A DNA stretch of 60,997 nucleotides, from positions 1-60,997 of the forward strand of contig VMTF01000025.1 in NCBI GenBank assembly GCA_013791705.1, given 5' to 3'. Shown here piece by piece: positions 37,408 to 55,319 of the stretch. Made by a program: the position numbers and the translations under genes. A model generated the notes under the pieces. The model was not told the origin of the DNA and ran no database searches. It saw only the letters and a list, made by a program, of their open reading frames with translations. Source of the stretch: Sphingomonadales bacterium (GTDB lineage: Bacteria; Pseudomonadota; Alphaproteobacteria; Sphingomonadales; Sphingomonadaceae). Within the stretch, counting starts at the first letter, position 1. Each line of letters begins with the position of its first letter.

Positions 37408-37605
37408 TTACTCGGTGTCGGTCGAAACCGAGCTTCTGCCGAGCAGCGCATAGATCGGGCAGCTCGACAGGAAGCCGGTCGCCAGCGGGATCAGACCGAG
37501 CAGGCCCCACTTGGTCTGCGGCCCGACGAACATCAGCATGAGCAGCGCGGCACCGACGACAATGCGAACCATGCGTTCACTGCCGCCAACATTGGTCTTG
37601 AACAT
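37408..37605 (-). CDS. DUF2892/YgaP-like small membrane protein
   Basis: MFKTNVG..ER..R...CPIYALLG. Confidence 0.85.
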   Translation of the reverse strand: MFKTNVGGSERMVRIVVGAALLMLMFVGPQTKWGLLGLIPLATGFLSSCPIYALLGRSSVSTDTE

Positions 37606-37738
37606 GGAAGTTCCCCTGGAAATCCGTAGAACAGTCATTCCTGCGGGCACTGTGCTTTCCGCCCAGACCCGCAAGAATGAACAGCCTAAGGGATAGTCCC
37701 AAGGTCTGAGCGAACTGTTAACCCGGCGAATTCGCGGC

Positions 37739-37930
37739 CTAGTTGCGTGGGCAGGTATTCAGCCCCAGCAGCGAATAGATCGGACAGGTCGAAAAAAGCC
37801 CGGTGAGCAGCGGCACCAGCCCGATCCAGCCCCACGGGGTCTGCGGCCCGACGAACACCAGGGCGATCAGCACCACCCCCAAAACGATGCGCAGGATGCG
37901 ATCGGCCTTGCCGACATTGGTCTTGAACAT
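37739..37930 (-). CDS. DUF2892/YgaP-like small membrane protein
   Basis: MFKTNVG.ADR..R...CPIYSLLGLNTC. Confidence 0.85.
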   Translation of the reverse strand: MFKTNVGKADRILRIVLGVVLIALVFVGPQTPWGWIGLVPLLTGLFSTCPIYSLLGLNTCPRN

Positions 37931-38042
37931 GAGTTTCACTCCTTCCAGCGAAGGCCATGACTGACCACACGGCAAGCGCGCGCGCATTGATGGCGATCAA
38001 CGCGGGGCTTGCGATCACGGCGAAACGGGAAGGCCGAAGGAA

Positions 38043-38172: not shown

Positions 38173-39258
38173 TCAGCCCTTTGCGAGGGTGAGCCGGGTC
38201 TTCTTTTCGGCGGCTTTCAGGCCCCGGCGCTGGGCCTTGTGGATCTTGCCCGAGGTCTGTTCGGCGTGGGTGTAGGTGCGGCGCATCAGGGCGGTGTCGG
38301 ACCATCCGCCGAATTCGCCGGCGGCCTTTTCGTCGACCGGCTGGCGCACGTTCATTTCCTGGCCGAAGCCGTGGCGGCCGGCGGCGTGGAAGGGGAGCAG
38401 CTCGATCCCGGCTTGCTTGCACGCCCGGGCCCAGCCCTTGCGGGGGCTCGACCGATCCGCGAAGCCGAACAGGCGCAGGTTGTCCTGCTTGCGGTCCATG
38501 CCGCGCGGGTAGAGCGGCGGGAGGTTGGCGAGTTCGGTCACCAGTTCGGGCGGGATTGCGATCCAGCGATCGTCGTGGCCCTTGGCGGCCGGAATGCAGG
38601 CGCGGCCGTGCTGGAGATCGAGGTGTTTGCCGGGATGCATCGCGACGGCCTGGCTGATGCGCGCGCCGGTCATGAACATGAACAGCGCGAGCGCGGCATG
38701 GCGGCGATCGGCGTGGGCCCGGAATTTGAGCAGCCATTCCCAGCTGCCCGGGGTGCGCTTGACCCGGCTGACCTTGCCGCGCCGACGATCCTGCGCGATG
38801 CGCTCCTCGCGTTCATAGCCCTTGATCCGGATCGGCGGGCCCTTGCCGAGATCGTGCGCATTGTTGATCACCGACCGGACCGGGGTGACGACGTGGCGAA
38901 TCCAGGTGTCGGTGGCGGCGTCCGGGTAAAGCTCCGGGCCAAGGTCGCGGACCTGCCGGGGGGTGATATCGCGCACGAACAGGTTGCCGATCTTCGCGAC
39001 AATGGGGATCAGATAGCCCGCATCGGCGGGGCTGGCGGTGTAGAGCAGCACCGCCTCGGCGAACGTCAGCGCCCTTTCGTCGCCGAGAAGGTAACGACGG
39101 ACCCGGCGCTCTTCCTCGTCGCGGCACCATTGCCACGCGCCTGCTTCCTCAGATGCGCCAGTGCTGCATCGATAGTAGTCGCTGACGGGGGTGCCGAGGT
39201 ATTCGACGCGGCCGCGCGCCCACCAGGTGCTTCCTCGGCGATAGGGTTCGAGTGGCAT
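38173..39258 (-). CDS. int: Tyrosine recombinase (phage integrase)
   Basis: TGARISQ (R), AKG (K), FHAAGRH (H..R), GGW, RRTYTH (Y); start at MPLEPYRRG. Confidence 0.9.
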   Translation of the reverse strand: MPLEPYRRGSTWWARGRVEYLGTPVSDYYRCSTGASEEAGAWQWCRDEEERRVRRYLLGDERALTFAEAVLLYTASPADAGYLIPIVAKIGNLFVRDITPRQVRDLGPELYPDAATDTWIRHVVTPVRSVINNAHDLGKGPPIRIKGYEREERIAQDRRRGKVSRVKRTPGSWEWLLKFRAHADRRHAALALFMFMTGARISQAVAMHPGKHLDLQHGRACIPAAKGHDDRWIAIPPELVTELANLPPLYPRGMDRKQDNLRLFGFADRSSPRKGWARACKQAGIELLPFHAAGRHGFGQEMNVRQPVDEKAAGEFGGWSDTALMRRTYTHAEQTSGKIHKAQRRGLKAAEKKTRLTLAKG

Positions 39259-39455
39259 TTGCGCCCGGCCTCCAGGATAAGATCGATCTGCTCGGGCGTG
39301 ATCAGCATCGCGCGGCCGAGGCGGTGGCACGCGCCGAGTCGGTTGGCCTTCTCGCGCAATGCCCGCTCCGAGATATCGAGTCCGCGCGCGGCCAGCAACC
39401 GGACCCATTCGGCCGGGGTGCGCCCGCGATCGAGAATTGGGGAGAGCGCGGTCAC
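39066..39455 (-). CDS. Putative excisionase / HTH DNA-binding protein
   Basis: ISERALREKANRLGAC...MLITPEQID winged-helix-like segment; overlaps the 5' end of int. Confidence 0.6.
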   Translation of the reverse strand: MTALSPILDRGRTPAEWVRLLAARGLDISERALREKANRLGACHRLGRAMLITPEQIDLILEAGRKCHSNPIAEEAPGGRAAASNTSAPPSATTIDAALAHLRKQARGNGAATRKSAGSVVTFSATKGR

Positions 39456-39793
39456 CGCACGCTGTCTCCATAAATCTTAAGCCAGTCGTTGAAATTGAGG
39501 CCGCTGTCGTGATTGAGGAAGGCCCGGTAGCGCCGCTGACCACGAGTCAACTTCAGGGCCGCAGGGCTTTTTTCGCGAACAAAGTCCCGCCCGGCATCCG
39601 TTACGATGAAGATATGGCCACCCACGATGTGCGGGTTCTCATAATGAGTCATCAGCCCATTGGCTGCTGCTCGAAGGCAGATTTCGAAGTCGGAATGACC
39701 CGGTCCTGCGACGAAGTGGTCGCGGTACATTTCGCCCTGGCCATGGCAATCAACACCGAGCGAATGCTGGAGAATCTCGAGTAGCTCTGTCAC
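39452..39793 (-). CDS. Phage hypothetical protein
   Basis: 113 aa; GTGA overlaps with both neighbours; visibly lower GC than flanks. Confidence 0.7.
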   Translation of the reverse strand: MTELLEILQHSLGVDCHGQGEMYRDHFVAGPGHSDFEICLRAAANGLMTHYENPHIVGGHIFIVTDAGRDFVREKSPAALKLTRGQRRYRAFLNHDSGLNFNDWLKIYGDSVR

Positions 39794-40431
39794 GCCACCT
39801 CCGCGAACTTGTCGGTTTCATTGCCCCATGAATTCCAGCCCTTGCGCGGGTTTCTGGCGAACAGCTCGAGGCGGGGAATGTCACCGAACAGCGCTTCGAG
39901 GCGGTCGTATTGCGCAGCGGGCTTGCGGCTGTGCTGCGACTTGGGGGCGACGATCAACTGGCGGACGGCGTGGCTGGCCACGGGGACGCCCTTGCCGCGC
40001 CTGAACAGCAGGCAGAGCTCGACCTGGTTGCGGGTGTACTTGCCCATGCCGATCGCGGGCTCGGCGATATCGCCGGTGAAGATATCGAGCTGGTCGGGCC
40101 GGATGCGGCGCTGCTTGAGCCAGAAGAACAGGTCGGTGACGTAGCGGAAGCCCCAGGCCTCGCCGAGCGCCAGCGCCTGATCGAGGTGGCTGCCGATCAC
40201 CCACAGCGCCAGCACCGCATCCGGCGCGGCGATATCGGCGACCGGGAGCGCGGCGAGCTCGGCCAGCGACAGGGTGGGATAGTGATCCTCGCCCGCCTTC
40301 TGGGTCGGTGTGCGCTTGGCGCCCGACCACAGCACGGTCTGCCAGGGCGGATCGGCGAGGATCAGGCGCCAGGCGGCGCGGGGGAGCTGGGCGAACCCTT
40401 CGACAAGCTCGGGATGAGCGGCGGCAGTCAT
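39790..40431 (-). CDS. MT-A70-family N6-adenine methyltransferase
   Basis: LILADPPW, HYPTL, LALWV, WGF.Y, HSRKP, RLELFAR, W..WGN. Confidence 0.9.
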   Translation of the reverse strand: MTAAAHPELVEGFAQLPRAAWRLILADPPWQTVLWSGAKRTPTQKAGEDHYPTLSLAELAALPVADIAAPDAVLALWVIGSHLDQALALGEAWGFRYVTDLFFWLKQRRIRPDQLDIFTGDIAEPAIGMGKYTRNQVELCLLFRRGKGVPVASHAVRQLIVAPKSQHSRKPAAQYDRLEALFGDIPRLELFARNPRKGWNSWGNETDKFAEVA

Positions 40432-40832
40432 GCCCACCCGTCCAGGAAGCAATCGATCGCGCCGATCAGCCGGTTGTCCTCGTCCTCCCGTTCGAGGTCG
40501 TAGGGCGGGGCTGCCGTGGCGCGCTGGATGCACAGGATTGCGCGCAGCGCGTCTGCCGCGTTCTCGGCCGGCTCCAGCGCGAAAGGTTCGAAGGCCTCCT
40601 GATCGCCCTCGCGGGAAAACCTGAGCAGCTCGGCAACAACTTCGGAAAGCTGCACGGCGGCCACCAGCGCGAGGCTGCGGCGCGGATCGGGCTGGGCGCA
40701 ATGGCTGCACAGCCGGTCAGCCACCCACCAGCAATGTCCGCGCAAGTCGTCGTGGCAGGGGCTGGCATCGGTGCAGCCGCAGAGCGCGCAAGTCTGGGGC
40801 GGGGTTTCCGCATCGGGCTGATCATCAATCAT
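40428..40832 (-). CDS. Phage protein with N-terminal Cys-rich zinc finger
   Basis: CALCGCTDASPC...CWWVADRLCSHC. Confidence 0.75.
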   Translation of the reverse strand: MIDDQPDAETPPQTCALCGCTDASPCHDDLRGHCWWVADRLCSHCAQPDPRRSLALVAAVQLSEVVAELLRFSREGDQEAFEPFALEPAENAADALRAILCIQRATAAPPYDLEREDEDNRLIGAIDCFLDGWA

Positions 40833-41584
40833 CAGTGGCTCCTGAAGGCGATCGAGCGGCGCGATTGCCAGCACAGCGCGCAGGTGGCGCAGCAATCGGT
40901 GGCGCCGGTCTGGGCGGGGCAGAGAATCGCGTCCGGGTCGGTTTCGCCCGGGCCGACGACGCGGGCGGCGCCGTGATCGTGCGGCGCGCCGGAGAAGCGG
41001 ATCGCGCAGCGGCGCCATCCGGCATTGTGGATCAGCAGCGCGATGGCGCGGCCGAGCGGCGAGTGCGGCTCGTGCGCGGTGAAGCCGAACAGGTGCAGCG
41101 CCGGATGGCGCGCCAGCATCTCACCCCAGAAGGCAACATAATCGGCCGACCAGAAATCGCCCAGCACGTGGAGCCGGACGAGAAAGCCGGCGGGGTGGGC
41201 GGCGGCGAGCCCGGCGAGTTCAACCCCCAGCCCCTCGATCAGATCGGGGCCATGCAGCACGCGCTCGGCGGCCCGCATGTTGTTGCCGTAGCAGCTTGTC
41301 CACTGATCGCAGGTTCGCGGGCAAGAGGCGCGTTCTTCCAGCGTCAGGGTATAGATCGGCCAACCCCGGCGATGGCCCTTGGCGACCTGCTTGCCGATCT
41401 TGCGGCTGTGCTGGCCGGACTTGAGCAGGCGGGGCAATTCGCCGGGATCGAACACCCGGCTGGAAAAGGCGGTGCGCCCGGCGCGGACGGCCGGATGCAG
41501 CGCGGAGAGGATCACGCCGTGGCCGGTCGGCTGCTTCGTGCCGAACCTGCGCATCGTGGCGCGGGCGGGATTGCGGGTGGCCAT
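40832..41584 (-). CDS. Gp88-like, putative radical-SAM/Fe-S phage protein
   Basis: CPRTCDQWTSCYG, RLHVLGDF, FGFT, C-terminal CP......CCATCALCW. Confidence 0.7.
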   Translation of the reverse strand: MATRNPARATMRRFGTKQPTGHGVILSALHPAVRAGRTAFSSRVFDPGELPRLLKSGQHSRKIGKQVAKGHRRGWPIYTLTLEERASCPRTCDQWTSCYGNNMRAAERVLHGPDLIEGLGVELAGLAAAHPAGFLVRLHVLGDFWSADYVAFWGEMLARHPALHLFGFTAHEPHSPLGRAIALLIHNAGWRRCAIRFSGAPHDHGAARVVGPGETDPDAILCPAQTGATDCCATCALCWQSRRSIAFRSH

Positions 41585-42438
41585 CAGGCGTCGTCCTCGA
41601 CAAGCTCGCCGAGCAGTTCATGCCACGCGGCGAGGAACACGGCGGCGCTGGAGGCCGAATATTTCACGTTCGGATTGGCGACCCGATAGCGCGCGATATC
41701 GGCGCGCCACTGGGCCTGCTCGCCCGCGGCGATCATTTCGATGAACAGCGCCCAGCGATCGTCAGCGAAGCCGGCGCCATCCTTCAGAACCTCGGCACAG
41801 ACCGCGACGATGCCGGGGAAGATCGATCCGGCATAGCGCAGCACCTGCCCGGCCAGCGCCTCGCCCAGGGCGCGCAGCGCGAGGCGGGTGACTTTCGCCC
41901 CGTGGCGGCGCCAGGCCTGTTCGATGCCGGCGACATTGGAGATCATCCCCGGCTTCCACGCGGTGTAATTCGTATGGCGCGCGAGGCGCAATCCCGCCGC
42001 TTCCAGCGCGGCGGCGATCGCGTCGGCCTCGCTGTCTCCCCCGGCGACGGCGGCCTTGAACAGGTCGAGCTTGTTCAGCGCGCGGCGCTGCTGGTTCATC
42101 GCGACGAAGCTGGCCGCCTCGTCGGCCCGCGAGGCGGAGCGGGAAACGACGCAGGGCAGGTCAAGCAGATCGCGGCGCAGGCGCGCGGCGGCCAGGCGGT
42201 GCTGGCCGTCGATCACCCAGAGCGTGCCATCCTCGCGCCGCGCGACGGCGAGCGGATGGAACAGCGACCAGTCCCAGAACGACGCGATCTTGCGGACCAG
42301 CGTGAGGCTGGGCGCATTGTCGATCGAGCGCTGGTAGGCCGGATCGATGTTGAGCTCCTCGATCCGGCAATTTTCCAGACTGGGCCGCCGGCCGAGCGGC
42401 GGATTGACCTTCAGCCGGGCGGTGGCGGGGCGGGACAT
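41584..42438 (-). CDS. ParB/Srx-fold protein (DUF6551-like, DGQHR)
   Basis: IDPAYQR...VIDGQHRLAAA...EA..F..MN. Confidence 0.8.
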   Translation of the reverse strand: MSRPATARLKVNPPLGRRPSLENCRIEELNIDPAYQRSIDNAPSLTLVRKIASFWDWSLFHPLAVARREDGTLWVIDGQHRLAAARLRRDLLDLPCVVSRSASRADEAASFVAMNQQRRALNKLDLFKAAVAGGDSEADAIAAALEAAGLRLARHTNYTAWKPGMISNVAGIEQAWRRHGAKVTRLALRALGEALAGQVLRYAGSIFPGIVAVCAEVLKDGAGFADDRWALFIEMIAAGEQAQWRADIARYRVANPNVKYSASSAAVFLAAWHELLGELVEDDA

Positions 42439-42758
42439 TATGCGGCGCCCCCTGCCTGGGCGATCAAGCCGTAGGCGAGGCTTTCCAGCATCTCCAGCTC
42501 AAGCCAGTCGTCAAGGTTACCGCCGCACTTGCGCTGCTCGACCTCGTGAGAAAGGTGGGGCATCAGGCGCTCGAGGATGTCGTTCAGCTCGGGGGCTCTT
42601 GCGATCAGCCGGGCGTTTGCCACGGCGCAAGGTTCGCTTGGCGAGACGCCCTGCGCCCACGCAACCGGATAATCCATACCGCGCTCGATGTCTTCGTCCG
42701 GCACGTAAATCTTGAGACCATCCGAGAACCATGGCCCGGGCGTGTATTGCGCGGTCAC
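42438..42758 (-). CDS. Phage hypothetical protein (TPGPW...ANARLIA.AP type)
   Basis: Motif pair common in small phage early proteins; coupled by overlaps. Confidence 0.7.
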   Translation of the reverse strand: MTAQYTPGPWFSDGLKIYVPDEDIERGMDYPVAWAQGVSPSEPCAVANARLIARAPELNDILERLMPHLSHEVEQRKCGGNLDDWLELEMLESLAYGLIAQAGGAA

Positions 42759-44182
42759 GCGGCGACCTCCTCGTCCTCGGATTTGTCGTCGGCCTGGTCG
42801 TCGTCGAGGGGGGCATTCTCGCCGCGTTCGCGCGCGGCGTCGGCGGCGGCTTTGGCGGCCAGTTCCTCGTCGACCAGGCGGGTCGCATCGGCGCGGTTGG
42901 CTTCGACTTCGGCGATCGGCACCTTGATCCAGACGACGACAAAGGAATGTTCGTCGTCGCAGTCTTCGACCGGCCATCCGCCTCGTGGCCAGAAGGCTCG
43001 GTCTGCGAGCGGCGTGCCGGCGAATTTCGGCACGGCCATGCGGGCGGCGCGGGCTTCAATCGCGCGATCGCGGGCGGCGGTGGCGCGTTCGGCATCCCAG
43101 TCGCGGGTTTCGGCCGGTTCGCGCTTCTGCTCGGGCTTGAACGCGCCGAGGCAGTGCAGGCCGAGGCCGTCCGAAGCGACCGCATAGACGCCGATCGCCT
43201 TCTTCTTCGCGGTTTTCGAAAGCTCGGTGCCATAGCCCCAATGGCGTTCGTAGCCCTTGGGCGCGGCGCACCAGCTTGCGCCGTTACCCACACCCTTGAC
43301 GAACAGACCCTGCTTGTAGCCATCGGCCTTGGCCTGGGCGGGAATCATCGCCTCGGCGCGGGTGCGGGCGAGCTTCTCCAGCAAGGCCACATCGACCACG
43401 CGCTGTTCGCCATCGGTGCCCATGAACATCTCGGCCTCGATCCGGCCGCCTTCGGCCTGATAGGCGGCAAGCTCGACGAAGGTCATCAGCGGATGGTTGA
43501 TGGGCAGGGTCTTCCCGCGCAGTTCGTCGCGCACCCAGCGGGGATTGTGGTCGCCATATTTGAGGCGGCCCTTGAACACCTTGACCTGCAGCGCGTGATC
43601 GGTGGTGCCGGCATAGGCCTTGGCGCTTTCCAGCCCGATCGCGCCGGTGCGCAGGGCTTCGAGGATTTCGGGCGCGAGGGCGGCGAGGCGCAACCGGCCT
43701 TCGACGTGGCGGACGGTAACGCCGAAGCGGCGGGCGGTGTAGCTCACCGCATCGGCCTGCAGCGCGCCGCCGTTCACCTGCTGGGCGACGATCGCCGCGA
43801 AGGCCTCGAACTCGTCGGCCGGGTTCATCGCGACGCGGTGGAGGTTTTCCGACAGGCTGGTTTCTTCTGCCTCGGCGCGATCCTCGAGCAGGCAGGGCAC
43901 TTCGTGATCGGCCGGCAGGCGGCCATCTTCGACCAGCAGTTGCATGGCCTGAAAACGGCGGCCGCCGGCAATCACCTCGAACTTGTCTGCCCAGCGATCC
44001 ACGCCGTCCCATTGCTCGTTCACGGTAGACGTGGTGAAATGCGCTGGCACGACGACCAGGTTCTGCTTGAGCCCGCGCGCGGCGATATCGTCGGCCAGCG
44101 CGGCGATATCGGCATCGCGCTCGGTCTTGCGGACATTGAGGTCTGACAGCAGCAGGCTGGACAGCGGCAGCGTGGTGATCAT
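42755..44182 (-). CDS. ParB/RepB/Spo0J-family protein
   Basis: NVRK, GLKQNLVV, IAGGRR, SLSENLHR, HTH ARRFGVT.RHV..RLRLA.L. Confidence 0.88.
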   Translation of the reverse strand: MITTLPLSSLLLSDLNVRKTERDADIAALADDIAARGLKQNLVVVPAHFTTSTVNEQWDGVDRWADKFEVIAGGRRFQAMQLLVEDGRLPADHEVPCLLEDRAEAEETSLSENLHRVAMNPADEFEAFAAIVAQQVNGGALQADAVSYTARRFGVTVRHVEGRLRLAALAPEILEALRTGAIGLESAKAYAGTTDHALQVKVFKGRLKYGDHNPRWVRDELRGKTLPINHPLMTFVELAAYQAEGGRIEAEMFMGTDGEQRVVDVALLEKLARTRAEAMIPAQAKADGYKQGLFVKGVGNGASWCAAPKGYERHWGYGTELSKTAKKKAIGVYAVASDGLGLHCLGAFKPEQKREPAETRDWDAERATAARDRAIEARAARMAVPKFAGTPLADRAFWPRGGWPVEDCDDEHSFVVVWIKVPIAEVEANRADATRLVDEELAAKAAADAARERGENAPLDDDQADDKSEDEEVAA

Positions 44183-44508
44183 GCGGGTTCTCCAAGCGGG
44201 GAGGTGAGCGGGGGTGGTGCGCCTTCCGCCGCGCGGAGCTGCGCGACGGTGCGGATCACATCGGCGACGGTGTGCCAGCGCGCCGCCGAATGCGCGTCGA
44301 GCAAGGCGTCGGGGATCTCGATGCAGAACGCTTCGTCGAGCTCCATCGCCAGGCACTGGTAATCGACCACGCAGCAGCGCAGATCGCGCACCAGTTCGGC
44401 CTCGGCGGTGACGACGGGCACGCGGTGCGGGAAGCGGGTGCGGGTGAGCTCGTGCTGGATCAGCGCGATGACTTCAGCGGCGAGGGGGCCGGTGAGGGAC
44501 GCGCTCAT
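44179..44508 (-). CDS. Acyl-carrier-protein-like protein lacking the attachment serine
   Basis: VTAEAELVRDLRCCVVDYQCLAMELDEAFCIEIPD...WHTVADVI matches the ACP pattern DLG.DSLD..EL.M.LEE.F.IEIPD....TV. Confidence 0.7.
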   Translation of the reverse strand: MSASLTGPLAAEVIALIQHELTRTRFPHRVPVVTAEAELVRDLRCCVVDYQCLAMELDEAFCIEIPDALLDAHSAARWHTVADVIRTVAQLRAAEGAPPPLTSPLGEPA

Positions 44509-44957
44509 GATCCTGCCGCGCCTTTTGTCCGGGCCTTGCGGCGCAGTTTCTCGAAGTCGGTCGCGGCAAGGCCAAGGCGGATGCGGGGCAACTCGATCGG
44601 CCCGCGCATCCATTCCGGCGGGAGCGAGCCGGGGTTGGCAAGATGGAGCAGCACGTCGCCATGGCATCCGCCGCCATCGAGCGCGCACCAGCAGGCAAGG
44701 TCTTTCCCGGCCAGTGATGTGACGTCACGGCGGATGCGGCGCCACAGCGCAAGTTGCGCGTCCGGATCGGGCTGATCGGAAAAGGCGATGAAGCCCCCGG
44801 CGAGCAAGGCGAACTTCGCTGCACATTGCAGGCGGGTGCCATCCTGCCCGACGACGAAGGGATTGCCCCAGCGGCCGGGGCGCGCGACGTTGACGGCATT
44901 GTCCGGCAGGCGCCAGCCCCGGGCGCGCGAGAGGCGGATGCGGCGGGGAGCAGTCAT
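44505..44957 (-). CDS. DUF4326-domain protein
   Basis: VARPGRWGNPF; LAGKDLACWC...CHGDVLL. Confidence 0.85.
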   Translation of the reverse strand: MTAPRRIRLSRARGWRLPDNAVNVARPGRWGNPFVVGQDGTRLQCAAKFALLAGGFIAFSDQPDPDAQLALWRRIRRDVTSLAGKDLACWCALDGGGCHGDVLLHLANPGSLPPEWMRGPIELPRIRLGLAATDFEKLRRKARTKGAAGS

Positions 44958-45367
44958 GCCGGGAACCCGTCGTGGGGCTGGTCATCGAGCAGGCGTCCGG
45001 CGGCTTTGGGCAAAAGGCGACCTGTTTTTGGGCAACGCTCCCGTTTGTCCAGATGCGCGGCATTGTGCTGACCGCGCCGCTTCAATTCGAGATTACCGAT
45101 GCGATTGTCGGTCTTGTCCTCGTTCCGATGATGGATCAGCCAGCCCTTTGGGGGGCGTGGATTTCCTGCCGCGCACCAAACGACAGTATGCTCGTAGGCA
45201 TAACCGTTCGGGTCGGCGAGCGGATGGTCCTTCCCCACCCTGATCTTGACGTAGCCGTTCGACGCGACAGACCCGCCAGGCTTCCAGCGATGCTGGCGTG
45301 ACGCCTTGACGTGGTGCCCATGAGAGGCAGGATTATTGCCCCGGCCGATGCCAGTTGCCCGCGTCAT
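44954..45367 (-). CDS. Free-standing HNH endonuclease
   Basis: GYAYEH.VV...IHHRNEDKTDNRIGNLEL...H..H. Confidence 0.88.
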   Translation of the reverse strand: MTRATGIGRGNNPASHGHHVKASRQHRWKPGGSVASNGYVKIRVGKDHPLADPNGYAYEHTVVWCAAGNPRPPKGWLIHHRNEDKTDNRIGNLELKRRGQHNAAHLDKRERCPKTGRLLPKAAGRLLDDQPHDGFPA

Positions 45368-46290
45368 GCTGGATACTCCCGCACTCGCAATCCTTCAGGG
45401 AATTGCTCAATGTCCTTGATCGCCTTCGGGCCGCCGCTGGAAAGCTGCTTGACGAACACTGGAACCCCGGCCGCTTGGCATTGATCCACGATCGACTGCG
45501 CCCAGTCGATGTGCATCGGGCGGGCGCCGGGGCCGCTCTCACCGCCGGCTACGACCCAGTCGATCCGGGCTAACCGGGCAGGTTCGTCAAAGCCGAAGGT
45601 CTGCGGATTATATCCGATCAGTGCATCGCAGGTGTTCAGCCAATTATCGTCGATTGCCGGCACATTAAGCTTCGTCAAATCCACCGGCCCAAGCAGCGGC
45701 TCGGCGCTGATCCAGCGGACGGCGGCGGGGGTGGCGAGCAGATCGGGAATGCGCTCGTCGGCGCGGGTCTGGTCCTCGACCGAGACGCCGAGCCAGACGT
45801 TCGGGAGGGTGCCATTGGTAGTTTCCAGCAGAACCCCATGTCCTTTCGGGCGCTTCTGCAGTTCACGAAGATGCGGGACAAGGCGGGGTTGCCACAGGTC
45901 GTTCATATACTCCCGCATCCGCGCGCTACGCTTGGTCAGCACCTGGAAGGTATGCTGCGGCGCCAGCGCCATCACGGCGAACACCTTGTCGATCCATTCG
46001 TCCGGCACCGATTCGTGGAACAGGTCGCCATGGGCGCAGACGAAGATGCGGCGCGGTTTCTTCCAGCGCAGGGGCTGGGTCAGCCATTGCTCGTTGAAGC
46101 GCACCTCGCCGGTCCAGACCGGGCCGGCCTTGGTGTCGCGGGTGAGGCCCTTGCGGCTCTGGAGGTGTTGCAGGCGGGTGCCGGCGAGCTTCATCGCGTA
46201 GCAGTTGGTGCAGCCGGGCGAGGTGACGGTGCAGCCGGTGACCGGATTCCACGTCGCGTCGGTCCATTCGATCCTGGTGGTATCAGCCAT
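45364..46290 (-). CDS. Gp37/Gp68 (DUF5131) radical-SAM-like protein
   Basis: IEWTDATWNPVTGCT..SPGCTNCYA, DLFHE, LTKR, W.SAEPLLG, WVVAGGESG.GARP, FVKQ. Confidence 0.92.
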   Translation of the reverse strand: MADTTRIEWTDATWNPVTGCTVTSPGCTNCYAMKLAGTRLQHLQSRKGLTRDTKAGPVWTGEVRFNEQWLTQPLRWKKPRRIFVCAHGDLFHESVPDEWIDKVFAVMALAPQHTFQVLTKRSARMREYMNDLWQPRLVPHLRELQKRPKGHGVLLETTNGTLPNVWLGVSVEDQTRADERIPDLLATPAAVRWISAEPLLGPVDLTKLNVPAIDDNWLNTCDALIGYNPQTFGFDEPARLARIDWVVAGGESGPGARPMHIDWAQSIVDQCQAAGVPVFVKQLSSGGPKAIKDIEQFPEGLRVREYPA

Positions 46291-46402
46291 GGGTCAAGGC
46301 TCCCGTCAGCCAGGTCAGCGCGCCGATCAGCGCCCAGAGCAGCAGCGCGGCGGGCAGGCTGACCAGCAGGCCGCGCGTGAAGCAGTTTCCGGCGGGGTTC
46401 AT
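46283..46402 (-). CDS. 39-aa single-TM peptide (below the ORF-track cut-off)
   Basis: MNPAGNCFTRGLLVSLPAALLLWALIGALTWLTGALTHG; ATGA-coupled upstream, overlaps the next start. Confidence 0.6.
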   Translation of the reverse strand: MNPAGNCFTRGLLVSLPAALLLWALIGALTWLTGALTHG

Positions 46403-46545
46403 GCCGCACCGCCTTCGCCGGCGGGGCTTTCGCGCCGGCGGCGGAGTTCGTCCTGCACGCGTTGTTCGTGCGGGCAGATCGGCCGGATGCCGGTGCGGGC
46501 GCGGCGCACGCGGAACGCGGCGCGGAGCTGGTGGCGCAGGCTCAT
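46399..46545 (-). CDS. 48-aa basic phage protein
   Basis: MSLRHQLRAAFRVRRARTG...; ATGA overlaps at both ends. Confidence 0.55.
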   Translation of the reverse strand: MSLRHQLRAAFRVRRARTGIRPICPHEQRVQDELRRRRESPAGEGGAA

Positions 46546-46757
46546 GGCAGCGCCGCCATGATCAGCGCGGCGAGGACGAACAGCAGGGTGGCCCCGGCGA
46601 TCGGCAGCGCCAGGCCGCGCGCGGACGGGCGCGGCTCGGCGGCGAGCAGCGGGTTGCGGGCGGCCTCCTCGTCCCACCGGGCCTGCAGCCGGGCGAGCGG
46701 GTGGGGGTGCTTCCCCGATGACCAGTGGCCCCGATGACCAGTGCCCGGCGGGATCAT
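46542..46757 (-). CDS. 71-aa protein with C-terminal TM helix
   Basis: ...GLALPIAGATLLFVLAALIMAALP; ATGA overlaps at both ends. Confidence 0.55.
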   Translation of the reverse strand: MIPPGTGHRGHWSSGKHPHPLARLQARWDEEAARNPLLAAEPRPSARGLALPIAGATLLFVLAALIMAALP

Positions 46758-46855
46758 GCGAACCACCACAAGGCGGCCGCGCCGAGCGTGATCCACGCGG
46801 TGACGACGATGGCGGGCAGCCGGTGCAACCAGCGGTCGGGATCGGGACGGTTCAT
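46754..46855 (-). CDS. 33-aa single-TM peptide (below the ORF-track cut-off)
   Basis: MNRPDPDRWLHRLPAIVVTAWITLGAAALWWFA; ATGA overlaps at both ends; GGAG upstream. Confidence 0.6.
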   Translation of the reverse strand: MNRPDPDRWLHRLPAIVVTAWITLGAAALWWFA

Positions 46856-47409
46856 GCTGCTTTCTCCAGGGCGAAGGCGGCGGCGCAATCGAACGGCGGC
46901 ACATCATTGCGGCCGTTCGGATCGAACATCAGGTGGCTGGCCAGTTCGCGCAGGGCGACCGCGCCGGCGCGCTGTTCGGGTGTGGCGAGCGGGCCGGTCA
47001 GCGCCTTGTCGCGCGCGCTGGCGAGCAGCGGCGCCCAGACCGCGCGGGGGCTGATTTCATCCGCCAGACGCCCACGCGCTTCGGCTTCGCCTATTTCCTG
47101 CGGGTCGGCCGGACTAATGCCGCCGCCAAAGTAGCCGCCCCTCGCAGCAGCGAGGGCGGAGGGGCTCGCGGCGTCATGCCGCCGGACCTCCGGCCAGACA
47201 ATCTGGCGTTCGCGCATATCGGCGAGGCCCTCGGCCAGCTCGGGCAGGTCCGCGCCGCACAGGCAGGCGATGGCGAGCCACGGGCGCAAGTGCTGGGTGG
47301 CGGTGCGCGGGTCCATCCGGCCGGTGCGCACCGCTTCGCGGGCGCGGGCCTGGCGAAGCTGGAATTCGCTTGCCGCCGCGCGGGCGAGGTCGGGGTGATA
47401 GTGGGACAT
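46852..47409 (-). CDS. First gene of the leftward early operon, hypothetical
   Basis: GGAGG SD before MSHYHPD; directly downstream of PL. Confidence 0.7.
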   Translation of the reverse strand: MSHYHPDLARAAASEFQLRQARAREAVRTGRMDPRTATQHLRPWLAIACLCGADLPELAEGLADMRERQIVWPEVRRHDAASPSALAAARGGYFGGGISPADPQEIGEAEARGRLADEISPRAVWAPLLASARDKALTGPLATPEQRAGAVALRELASHLMFDPNGRNDVPPFDCAAAFALEKAA

Positions 47410-47434
47410 GGAAGCCTCCGCTGTTGCGGCGCCT

Positions 47435-47486
47435 AAATGCAGGATGGATAAATCCATTGTCAAGCGGGGAATATGGATAAATCCAT
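47435..47486 (-). promoter_or_regulatory. PL promoter with two operators (ATGGATAAATCCAT at 47444-47457 and 47473-47486)
   Basis: Minus strand TTGACA-17 nt-GCATTT; identical 14-bp near-palindromes flanking the -35. Confidence 0.85.
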
Positions 47487-50516: not shown

Positions 50517-50871
50517 GGGCGGCGAGAATGGCCCGGCGCCGGACGGGCTGGCGGACGTGATCGCCTATCTCGAGCGCAAGCGCGGCAATGCCGGGCTGGT
50601 GGCCGGACGCAGCCCGGAGTTCGCCGAGCTGGCCCGCGACCGGGCGCGGCAGCTCGAAATCATGATCGATGAGCTGAAGGCCGGGCTGCACCAGGGCGAG
50701 GCCGCAGTGAGCTTAATGCTGTCGGCCGGATCGGCCGAGGAGCCCGGCAGTGCTGATGCCGCCGCCGATGAGCGCGCAGCCCGGAACACCGGGAGCGCAG
50801 GCGGCGTCATGCCGACAGCCGGATACCGCGGCGCGGGTGGGGCGGATTCGGCAAGCAAGGAGAGCGAATGA
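50509..50871 (+). CDS. Phage hypothetical protein
   Basis: GGAG SD; overlaps both neighbours; tail encoded by a structured element. Confidence 0.6.
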   Translation: MTEGGENGPAPDGLADVIAYLERKRGNAGLVAGRSPEFAELARDRARQLEIMIDELKAGLHQGEAAVSLMLSAGSAEEPGSADAAADERAARNTGSAGGVMPTAGYRGAGGADSASKESE

Positions 50872-52223
50872 TGGCACGTGGCGCAAACCGGGACGAGCCG
50901 GAGACCGGCGGCGGAACAGGCGGCGGCCCGCCGCCCGATCCGCGCAAGGCCGCCGTGAGGGTGCAGGCCGGGGTGTTGCACGCGGCGCTGAAGGACGTGA
51001 CCGGGGTGGTCGCCGGGCGCAACACGGTGCCGATCCTCGACCATGTGCTGTTCGCGGCCGGGGACGGGCGGATCACGCTGACCGCGACCGATCTCGACAT
51101 CTGGGTGACGCGCGATCTGGCCAGCAATGACCGGGACGGGCCGGACGGCGCCGAGTGGGTCAAATCGATCCGCCCGTTCGTGCTGACCCTGCCGGCGAAG
51201 GCGCTGCTGGCAGTGATCGGCGAGCTGGACAGCGAGGCGATGGTGACGATCGCGGCGCCGGGCCTTCGCCTTTCGCCAGGCTCAGGCCCCCAGGGTGAGC
51301 CTGGCGGCGATAATCGTGCGGCGATCAGCGCCGGGCGGGCGCGGTTCCGGCTGCACAGCCTGGCGCCGGACGATTTCCCGCAGCCGCCGCCGATGGCGGT
51401 CGCGGCCGGGTTCGAGTTGCCCTGCACGGTGCTGGGCGATGCCTTCGCGGCGGTGGAGCACGCGATCTCGACCGAGGAGACGCGCTATTACCTGAACGGG
51501 ATCTATCTGCATCCGTTTCAGGCGGGTGAGGGCGCGCCGATGGACCTGCGGATGGCGGCGACCGATGGCGCCCGGCTCGGGCGGGTGCTGCTTGACCTGC
51601 CCGACGGGGCGGCGAGCTTCCCGGCGGTGATCCTCGCGCGGCTGACCGTTGCGGTGCTGGACAAGCTGATGCTGGCGGCGATCAAGGGCGCGCCCGAGGA
51701 CGCCGAACCGCCGCGCATCCTGATCGAGGCGGCGAGCGAGGCGCCGGGCGCGCGGGTGCGGTTCGCCCTGCCGGCCGGCGATGGCGGCACGGTGGAGGTG
51801 ATCGCCAAGACGATCGACGGGAGCTTTCCCGATTATGCCCGGGTGATCCCGGCCGACCCACCGCTTCGCGCGGTGGTCGACCGGGCGGCGCTGCTCGCCG
51901 CGCTGCGGCGGGTGGCGGTGCTGGGCGCGGCCAAGAGCCGGGTGGTGCGCGCCAAGTTTGCCGCCGAGCAGCTGACCCTGACGGTGAGCACCCTCGAGCT
52001 GGGCGAGGCCTGCGAGGAACTGCCCTGCGCCTGGGCCGGCGAACCGCTGACGGTGGGGCTCGACAGCAAATACTGGCGCGAGGCGCTGCTCGCTTTGGAC
52101 GGGGACGAGGTGGCGCTCGGGCTGACCTATGCCGGCGCGCCGGTGCGGATGCGGGGCGTGGGGCGCGATGATGGATCGGAGAGCGACCGGCTTGTCCAGG
52201 TCGTGATGCCGGCGCGGGTGTGA
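50868..52223 (+). CDS. dnaN: Phage-encoded DNA polymerase III beta sliding clamp
   Basis: RNTVPILDHVL, LTATDLDI, DDFP, AISTEETRYYLNGIYL, ATDG.RL, K.IDGSFPDYARVIP, VVMPARV. Confidence 0.92.
   Translation: MMARGANRDEPETGGGTGGGPPPDPRKAAVRVQAGVLHAALKDVTGVVAGRNTVPILDHVLFAAGDGRITLTATDLDIWVTRDLASNDRDGPDGAEWVKSIRPFVLTLPAKALLAVIGELDSEAMVTIAAPGLRLSPGSGPQGEPGGDNRAAISAGRARFRLHSLAPDDFPQPPPMAVAAGFELPCTVLGDAFAAVEHAISTEETRYYLNGIYLHPFQAGEGAPMDLRMAATDGARLGRVLLDLPDGAASFPAVILARLTVAVLDKLMLAAIKGAPEDAEPPRILIEAASEAPGARVRFALPAGDGGTVEVIAKTIDGSFPDYARVIPADPPLRAVVDRAALLAALRRVAVLGAAKSRVVRAKFAAEQLTLTVSTLELGEACEELPCAWAGEPLTVGLDSKYWREALLALDGDEVALGLTYAGAPVRMRGVGRDDGSESDRLVQVVMPARV

Positions 52224-53507: not shown

Positions 53508-55315
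<1,808 letters not shown>

Positions 55316-55319
<4 letters not shown>

Follow-up and report, generated by a model that had tools for sequence, protein, structure and literature searches.

A prophage of a Sphingomonadales bacterium carries, in the 60,997-nucleotide stretch of contig VMTF01000025.1 analyzed here (the window), a gene for a protein that is predicted to have the full acyl carrier protein (ACP) fold and that lacks Ser36, the serine that takes phosphopantetheine, so that the cofactor cannot attach (Table 1). This serine-less gene is maintained, and its product is not a member of the functional ACPs. We tentatively propose, at somewhat less than an even chance, that the protein is a phage-borne ACP descendant serving as a decoy that selectively binds an ACP-handling enzyme of the host.

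Table 1. Features of the ACP-like gene, its product and its surroundings in the window.
Feature	Coordinates	Strand	Basis
ACP-fold gene without phosphopantetheine serine (P0002, 109 aa)	44179..44508	minus	alignment, model, structure search
Degenerate attachment motif DLRCCVVD, residues 42-49	44362..44385	minus	alignment, model
Predicted helix II, residues 47-61	44326..44370	minus	model, conservation, selection
W78 at the I62 position, clade mark (66/76), also in 7/22 other phage ACPs	44275..44277	minus	
DUF4326 gene, upstream, ATGA overlap with ACP-like gene	44505..44957	minus	PF14216, E 9e-21
ParB-like gene, downstream, ATGA overlap with ACP-like gene	42755..44182	minus	
Leftward early operon of prophage	38173..47463	minus	
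S24-type phage repressor	47935..48756	minus	

The translation of the 109-residue frame and its coupling on both sides are as the original prediction gave them, with the minus strand now added: the start ATG overlaps the TGA of the DUF4326 gene at 44505-44508 and the TGA overlaps the ATG of the ParB-like gene at 44179-44182. We discarded an alternative, longer frame beginning with GTG at 44688, since it would overlap the DUF4326 gene and most relatives are 76-115 residues long. The GC3 of the gene (0.86) resembles that of neighboring genes. The GTG codon of Val47 (44368-44370), which occupies the Ser36 position, was unchanged in contigs of four sequencing runs (X4, X6, X7, and X8), so Val47 is no assembly error; these contigs held two variants within the gene, one synonymous and one V13I, their effects derived by hand from their positions. 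The host genome is 96.7% complete.

The operon that holds the gene spans from the S24 repressor to the integrase, which ends at 38173, and encodes DUF5131, HNH, DUF4326, the ACP-like protein, ParB, DUF6551, a GP88-like protein, an MT-A70 methylase, an excisionase-like HTH protein and the integrase. To the right of the repressor are CII-like, beta-clamp, primase, D5, and likely terminase genes. No lipid enzymes were found among the 25 prophage proteins scanned, and a scan for promoters and terminators returned matches at chance level only. The host has three serine-bearing ACPs of its own, along with AcpS, and thus has no need for an extra carrier. The DNA polymerase III beta clamp of the prophage (50868-52223, plus) also occurs in a related phage (L040), and the DnaG-type primase (53508-55319, plus), the gene for which adjoins that of the D5-like helicase, has a weak C-terminal match to a GapR-like DNA-binding domain (residues 485-556; 22.4 of 22.6 bits). 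The GP88-like (40832-41584, minus) and DUF5131 (45364-46290, minus) proteins are both cysteine-rich, and together with the two ParB-type genes and the MT-A70 methylase of the same operon they possibly form a DNA-modification module; the portions of the literature covered did not support a link between the ACP-like gene and DNA hypermodification. Between the integrase end and serS there are two short, tandem genes for paralogous membrane proteins (37408-37674 and 37739-37987, both minus).

An AlphaFold2 model built from 33 sequences (pLDDT 89) has helices at residues 8-24, 47-61, and 81-96. The original prediction held that helices II to IV were kept; II and IV were modeled, as was helix I, and III was not called as a helix of at least 4 residues. 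Each of the 50 matches listed by VIA-align is either a carrier protein or a complex that contains one; the best has Z 12.3 and an rmsd of 1.7 over 74 aligned residues. The aligner warns that Z values below about 13 may reflect nothing more specific than a helical bundle; this doubt is removed by the uniform nature of those matches and by the E value of 4e-19 for the family profile against solved ACPs. Foldseek likewise matched the model to carrier proteins in the PDB and BFVD, with a TM score by target of 0.84 to 2n57. The ACP fold expected at the outset is thus predicted, while searches with PP-binding HMMs gave a divided outcome: the prophage protein itself had no PP-binding match in the Pfam scan, whereas 25 of the 33 aligned relatives match PF00550. 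Its NCBIfam ACP matches are under the cut-off (best E 1e-5, 25 of 71 bits), with TIGR00517 scoring 22.2 bits vs. a cut-off of 70.45. A homodimer prediction (residues 1-98, alignment A8) scored 0.00, which speaks neither for nor against a dimer.

ACP positions are given here in E. coli numbering, by offset from S36, and were checked against papers for 35-48, 50, 54, and 64; positions 56, 59, and 62 follow from the offset. HMMER aligned DLRCCVVD without gaps to the DSLD motif of Helicobacter pylori ACP, pairing C46 with D35, V47 with S36, V48 with L37, and D49 with D38, which bears out the earlier alignment of DSL with CVV. The four clustered cysteines noted at that time are at residues 45, 46, 52, and 62, and in the model C46 stands immediately ahead of helix II. 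The two residues by which AcpS recognizes ACP, D35 and E41, are absent, with C46 and C52 in their places. Helix II further has A54 for V43 and an added E56, and the acidic D38, E47, and E48 positions are kept as D49, D58, and E59. In comparison with type II AcpP (PF00550, TIGR00517; PDB 2n57 and 4zjb; the host's L002), the prophage protein shares the predicted fold, the pattern of helices II and IV, D38, E47/E48, and the IPD and TVxD motifs; it differs at S36 (V), D35 (C), E41 (C), V43 (A), and I62 (W), and in that its loop I is longer, five extra residues precede helix IV, its net negative charge is half as large (-7.2 vs. -14.4 for host AcpP), and its gene lies outside any fab cluster.

To place the protein among its relatives, we searched 1.84 billion proteins with phmmer, which gave 34 matches, and two profile rounds then added more. 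Two of the 34 (P0021 and P0031) were dropped as long repetitive proteins, and P0039 was set aside as canonical. At a cut of our own choosing (at least 70 bits on profile A8) the clade comprises 76 proteins, leaving out the L040 protein as a near copy of P0041; a few further serine-less members score 58-67 bits, below this cut. Ser36 is kept in 13 of the 76 and missing from 63, with 13 different residues found at this position; in 42 representatives, none of 38 columns is more variable than this one, which shares the top rank. E41 is kept in a single member; even among the serine-keepers, 12 of 13 are without it. The acidic positions are retained, D38 in 69, D or E at 47 in 75, E48 in 59, and D56 in 65 members, and the clade is marked by A43 (60/76), E45 (45/76), and W62 (66/76). 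The 35 members outside profile building agree (Ser in 5, E41 in 1, W62 in 32), and 35 of the 41 members tested match phrog_5934. As controls, D35, S36, and E41 are kept in all 29 sphingomonad ACPs, and among 22 other phage ACPs S36 is kept in 19 and E41 in 21. Since 63 of the 76 are unable to bind the cofactor and Glu41 is absent from all but one of the serine-keepers, an auxiliary lipid-metabolism label would often be wrong in this clade. The residue at position 59 is bulkier in 69 of the 76, and positions 59 and 62 presumably line the acyl-binding pocket; together with W62 this hints at a pocket that may be filled. We rejected W62 as a mark of dead carriers, however, as six other phage ACPs carry it alongside intact S36 and E41. 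Among the clade members, P0036, P0040, and P0042-P0046 form a subclade in which some 20 conserved residues extend the C-terminus past the ACP fold, and P0028 has a 70-residue N-terminal extension.

In a fast tree with column 36 masked, the clade grouped with gp73 of HMSP1-Susan and L049 (SH-aLRT 87.8), and over all tips there were 7 changes of serine state, vs. 24.5 for shuffled labels. Because many inner nodes of this tree are weak, we infer rather than read from it that the serine was lost several times within the clade, and that E41 went first and the serine then drifted. Six clade loci were available with DNA (the window, L004, L040, L042, L043, and L070/L073) and all resemble phage early regions; L073 repeats the order DUF4326, ACP-like protein (with Trp at 36), ParB, and MT-A70.

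Under overlapping genome samples and strict cut-offs, one member beyond that of the window was found among 400 genomes of the family and one among 350 of the genus, while an order-wide search of 401 genomes, that of the window included, for which the cut-off was set to exclude host AcpP and weak members were missed, found no clade member except the window's own. Single-sequence searches with the prophage protein returned only itself, with no match in viral contigs; viral scans with profiles A4 and A5 gave no matches and that with A7 gave three serine-bearing ACPs, and a scan of genome contigs gave three loci, none belonging to the clade. Other candidates were discarded as chance matches (L005 and L006), as host AcpP (L007) or as intact ACPs (G318 and G569). 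In the latter two genomes a second, intact ACP (L012:1507-1758 minus and L071:536-787 minus), identical over the aligned stretch and adjoined in L012 by a MucR-like gene, is perhaps on a mobile element. In G350 (L010:10097-17803) a prophage with a serine-less homolog lies a few genes downstream of the host acpP-fabF cluster.

The loss of serine is common to the closest homologs, and these are under purifying selection, a point that the original prediction proposed to check: the genes of the window, L040, and L042 are all serine-less (codons GTG, GCG, and GCG at position 36), and the Nei-Gojobori omega values of the three pairs are 0.48, 0.42, and 0.35 (Fisher p 0.002 or less), as measured on three related genes. 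The prophage protein is thus predicted to have the ACP fold, and its close homologs share the loss rather than keeping the serine beside a relaxed prophage copy. Five neighbor genes compared with L040 have omega values of 0.17, 0.25, 0.25, 0.45, and 0.54. Along the gene, in short segments of these three genes, pN/pS is lowest over the motif and helix II (0.23-0.32); in the pairs of the window with a relative it is 0.62-0.64 in helix I and 0.82-0.93, near neutral, in helices III-IV, vs. 0.29 for the latter between L040 and L042. The L040 and L042 genes differ almost solely past codon 43, a pattern that suggests recombination.

The decoy that we favor is based on the intact gene, its position in the operon, the loss of S36, D35, and E41, the purifying selection centered on helix II, and the free variation at position 36. 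In this reading, a phage ACP descendant without the cofactor serine but with the predicted ACP fold would use the acidic residues retained in helix II and in the loop behind it (D38, E47, E48, and D56) to attach to some host enzyme whose usual partner is ACP, and would block this target while carrying nothing. The partner would probably be a host lipid-synthesis enzyme other than AcpS, and expression would be expected early after induction or infection. There are precedents for ACPs that act without the cofactor in the portions of the literature covered: an S39A ACP suppresses growth of E. coli (PMC4736557), apo-ACP stimulates MukB, the chromosome ATPase of E. coli (PMC8602292), apo-ACP inhibits glycerol-3-phosphate acyltransferase (PMC3896788), and helix II is described as the common partner surface of ACP (PMC3340395). 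These engineered apo and Ser-to-Ala or Ser-to-Thr ACPs have no cofactor either; unlike the prophage protein, they keep D35 and E41, and a search of the 96.7% complete host genome gave neither MukB nor PlsB, the targets of the two best precedents.

The same portions of the literature restrict the range of likely partners. A single D35N or E41A change abolishes modification by AcpS, and E41A also that by Sfp (bioRxiv 10.1101/2025.01.28.635281); binding of IscS requires D35, D38, and S36 (PMC13343975); SpoT does not bind apo-ACP (PMC3896788) and is reportedly confined to beta- and gammaproteobacteria (PMC3340395). With these requirements, and with MukB and PlsB not found, a broad ACP mimic is unlikely. 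ACP makes up 0.25% of soluble protein in E. coli in the account cited (PMC3896788), and this abundance would make plain titration costly. The idea that the protein titrates ACP partners thus stands as to the fold, the loss of serine and the selection, and is weakened as to titration in general by the additional loss of D35 and E41; AcpS and SpoT, which had been named as targets, fit poorly since they need residues or a cofactor that the protein does not have. Half of the recognition surface is lost (D35, S36, E41, and E49). The positions D35/D38 and T64/D67 are helix caps. Many kept residues may be structural, E47 being hydrogen-bonded to I54 in the part of one source covered (bioRxiv 2025.01.28.635281), so the conservation of helix II need not mean docking. 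On balance, the prophage protein is likely a cofactor-free binding protein that docks by the kept acidic end of helix II.

A cofactor-free protein of this type might also be partnered outside lipid metabolism, and we consider it conceivable, though on the whole unlikely, that the ACP fold was put to new use in a small acidic adaptor serving a protein such as the phage ParB or DUF6551 or a host DNA-handling protein. Positions 41 and 43 change together across the clade (T, C, S, or V at 41 in 70 members and A43 in 60), as if a new surface had formed, and the reported regulation of a chromosome ATPase by apo-ACP in E. coli (PMC8602292) would be in keeping with such a role. A ParB-type or DUF6551 gene comes directly after the ACP-like gene in four of the six loci with DNA (the window, L040, L042, and L073); however, these are related phages and not independent, and in L043 and L004 it is a DNA methylase gene that follows. 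In the window the two genes overlap by ATGA, but such overlaps occur throughout the leftward operon.

The decoy might also be directed at an ACP-requiring or ACP-sensing defense protein of the host, filling its ACP site, an explanation that we regard as improbable. The location of the gene in an early accessory operon alongside a DNA methylase and the recurrence of serine-less ACP folds in unrelated phages, one of them fused to rIIB, would be consistent with counter-defense, and the patchy presence of the clade among family and genus genomes fits an arms race; yet patchiness is usual for any prophage gene, and neither our analysis nor the titles and abstract openings of the literature identified an ACP-dependent defense system. 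Rather doubtful as well is the broader proposal that phages made cofactor-free ACP decoys several times and that this clade is a second design, without the AcpS contacts, which singles out one host protein dependent on ACP, perhaps a sensor or effector of anti-phage defense. If this were true, ACP would be a battleground of the conflict between phages and bacteria.

There is also little likelihood, in our view, that the gene is a formerly working phage ACP in decay that has no function and survives in the short term. Phage ACPs with an intact serine are indeed common, being the rule among the other phage ACPs above and with host AcpP as a query matching 353 of 50,697 phage records, and the intact HMSP1-Susan gp73 (S36 and E41) falls inside the clade; in addition, the omega of the ACP-like gene is at the high end of its neighbors' range. 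Against decay, the frames are intact, omega is below 1 in all three serine-less pairs, and the 63 serine-less members, many of them only 30-40% identical to the query, have kept the core and share the new signature. Least credible, to the point of being nearly dismissed, are a carrier working directly through a Cys thiol for neighboring enzymes, as suggested earlier, or through S, T, or C at 41 (found in 65 of 76), and a Cys-bound metal: C45, C46, and C52 do not vary among the closest relatives, but across the clade Cys occurs at position 36 in none, at 35 in 10, at 41 in 19, and at 51 in 4 of the 76, V, I, A, D, and N also occur at 41, C46 precedes helix II, and the neighbors shift between phages without a common enzyme, DUF5131 being unmatched in L040 and L073 and GP88 in L073.

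Returning to the selective decoy, a natural, conserved ACP that has no phosphopantetheinyl transferase contacts and has partly kept its docking helix would be a probe for those ACP partners that a phage gains by blocking, and the prophage protein may offer a way toward inhibitors that act selectively on lipid synthesis in bacteria. The phage ACPs that are serine-intact (PHROG 5934, gp73 of Sinorhizobium phage HMSP1-Susan and the roseobacter prophage acpP) are likewise stand-alone small genes in accessory regions, and gp73 shares the C-terminal WHTVADVI motif with the prophage protein; unlike it, they retain DSL and E41. Phage ACP genes of this kind have been read as auxiliary lipid or metabolic genes in the portion of the source covered (PMC8224337). 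ACP-like proteins without Ser36 are also found in the Ackermannviridae phages LPST94 (a Kuttervirus) and phiMAM1 and in the N-terminal domain of rIIB of Aeromonas phage Aswh_1 (L059:262-561, with Glu at the serine site). These have Asp or Glu at 36 (DDLD/DELD) and, in contrast to the prophage protein, keep D35 and E41; those of LPST94 and phiMAM1 are as acidic as AcpP and are annotated in GenBank as acyl carrier proteins. phiMAM1, the one of the three placed on the tree, fell outside the clade. One proteomic table records a single recovery of a Kuttervirus ACP in the part of the source covered (PMC10892097), and the full-text literature covered, which takes in few subscription papers, yielded no paper describing serine-less phage ACPs; the portions covered of PMC13159022 and PMC5977210 contained nothing of relevance. 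This clade, mostly without Ser36 and E41, is a further variation on a recurrent phage theme. As a side observation, in Rhizobium phage RHph_X2_24 (L060:995-1680) an intact ACP gene is followed by a MazG-like one, and a 246-residue putative NTP pyrophosphohydrolase of phage P106B (BFVD W6E8I3) matches the ACP fold, which suggests an ACP-MazG link in rhizobial phages.
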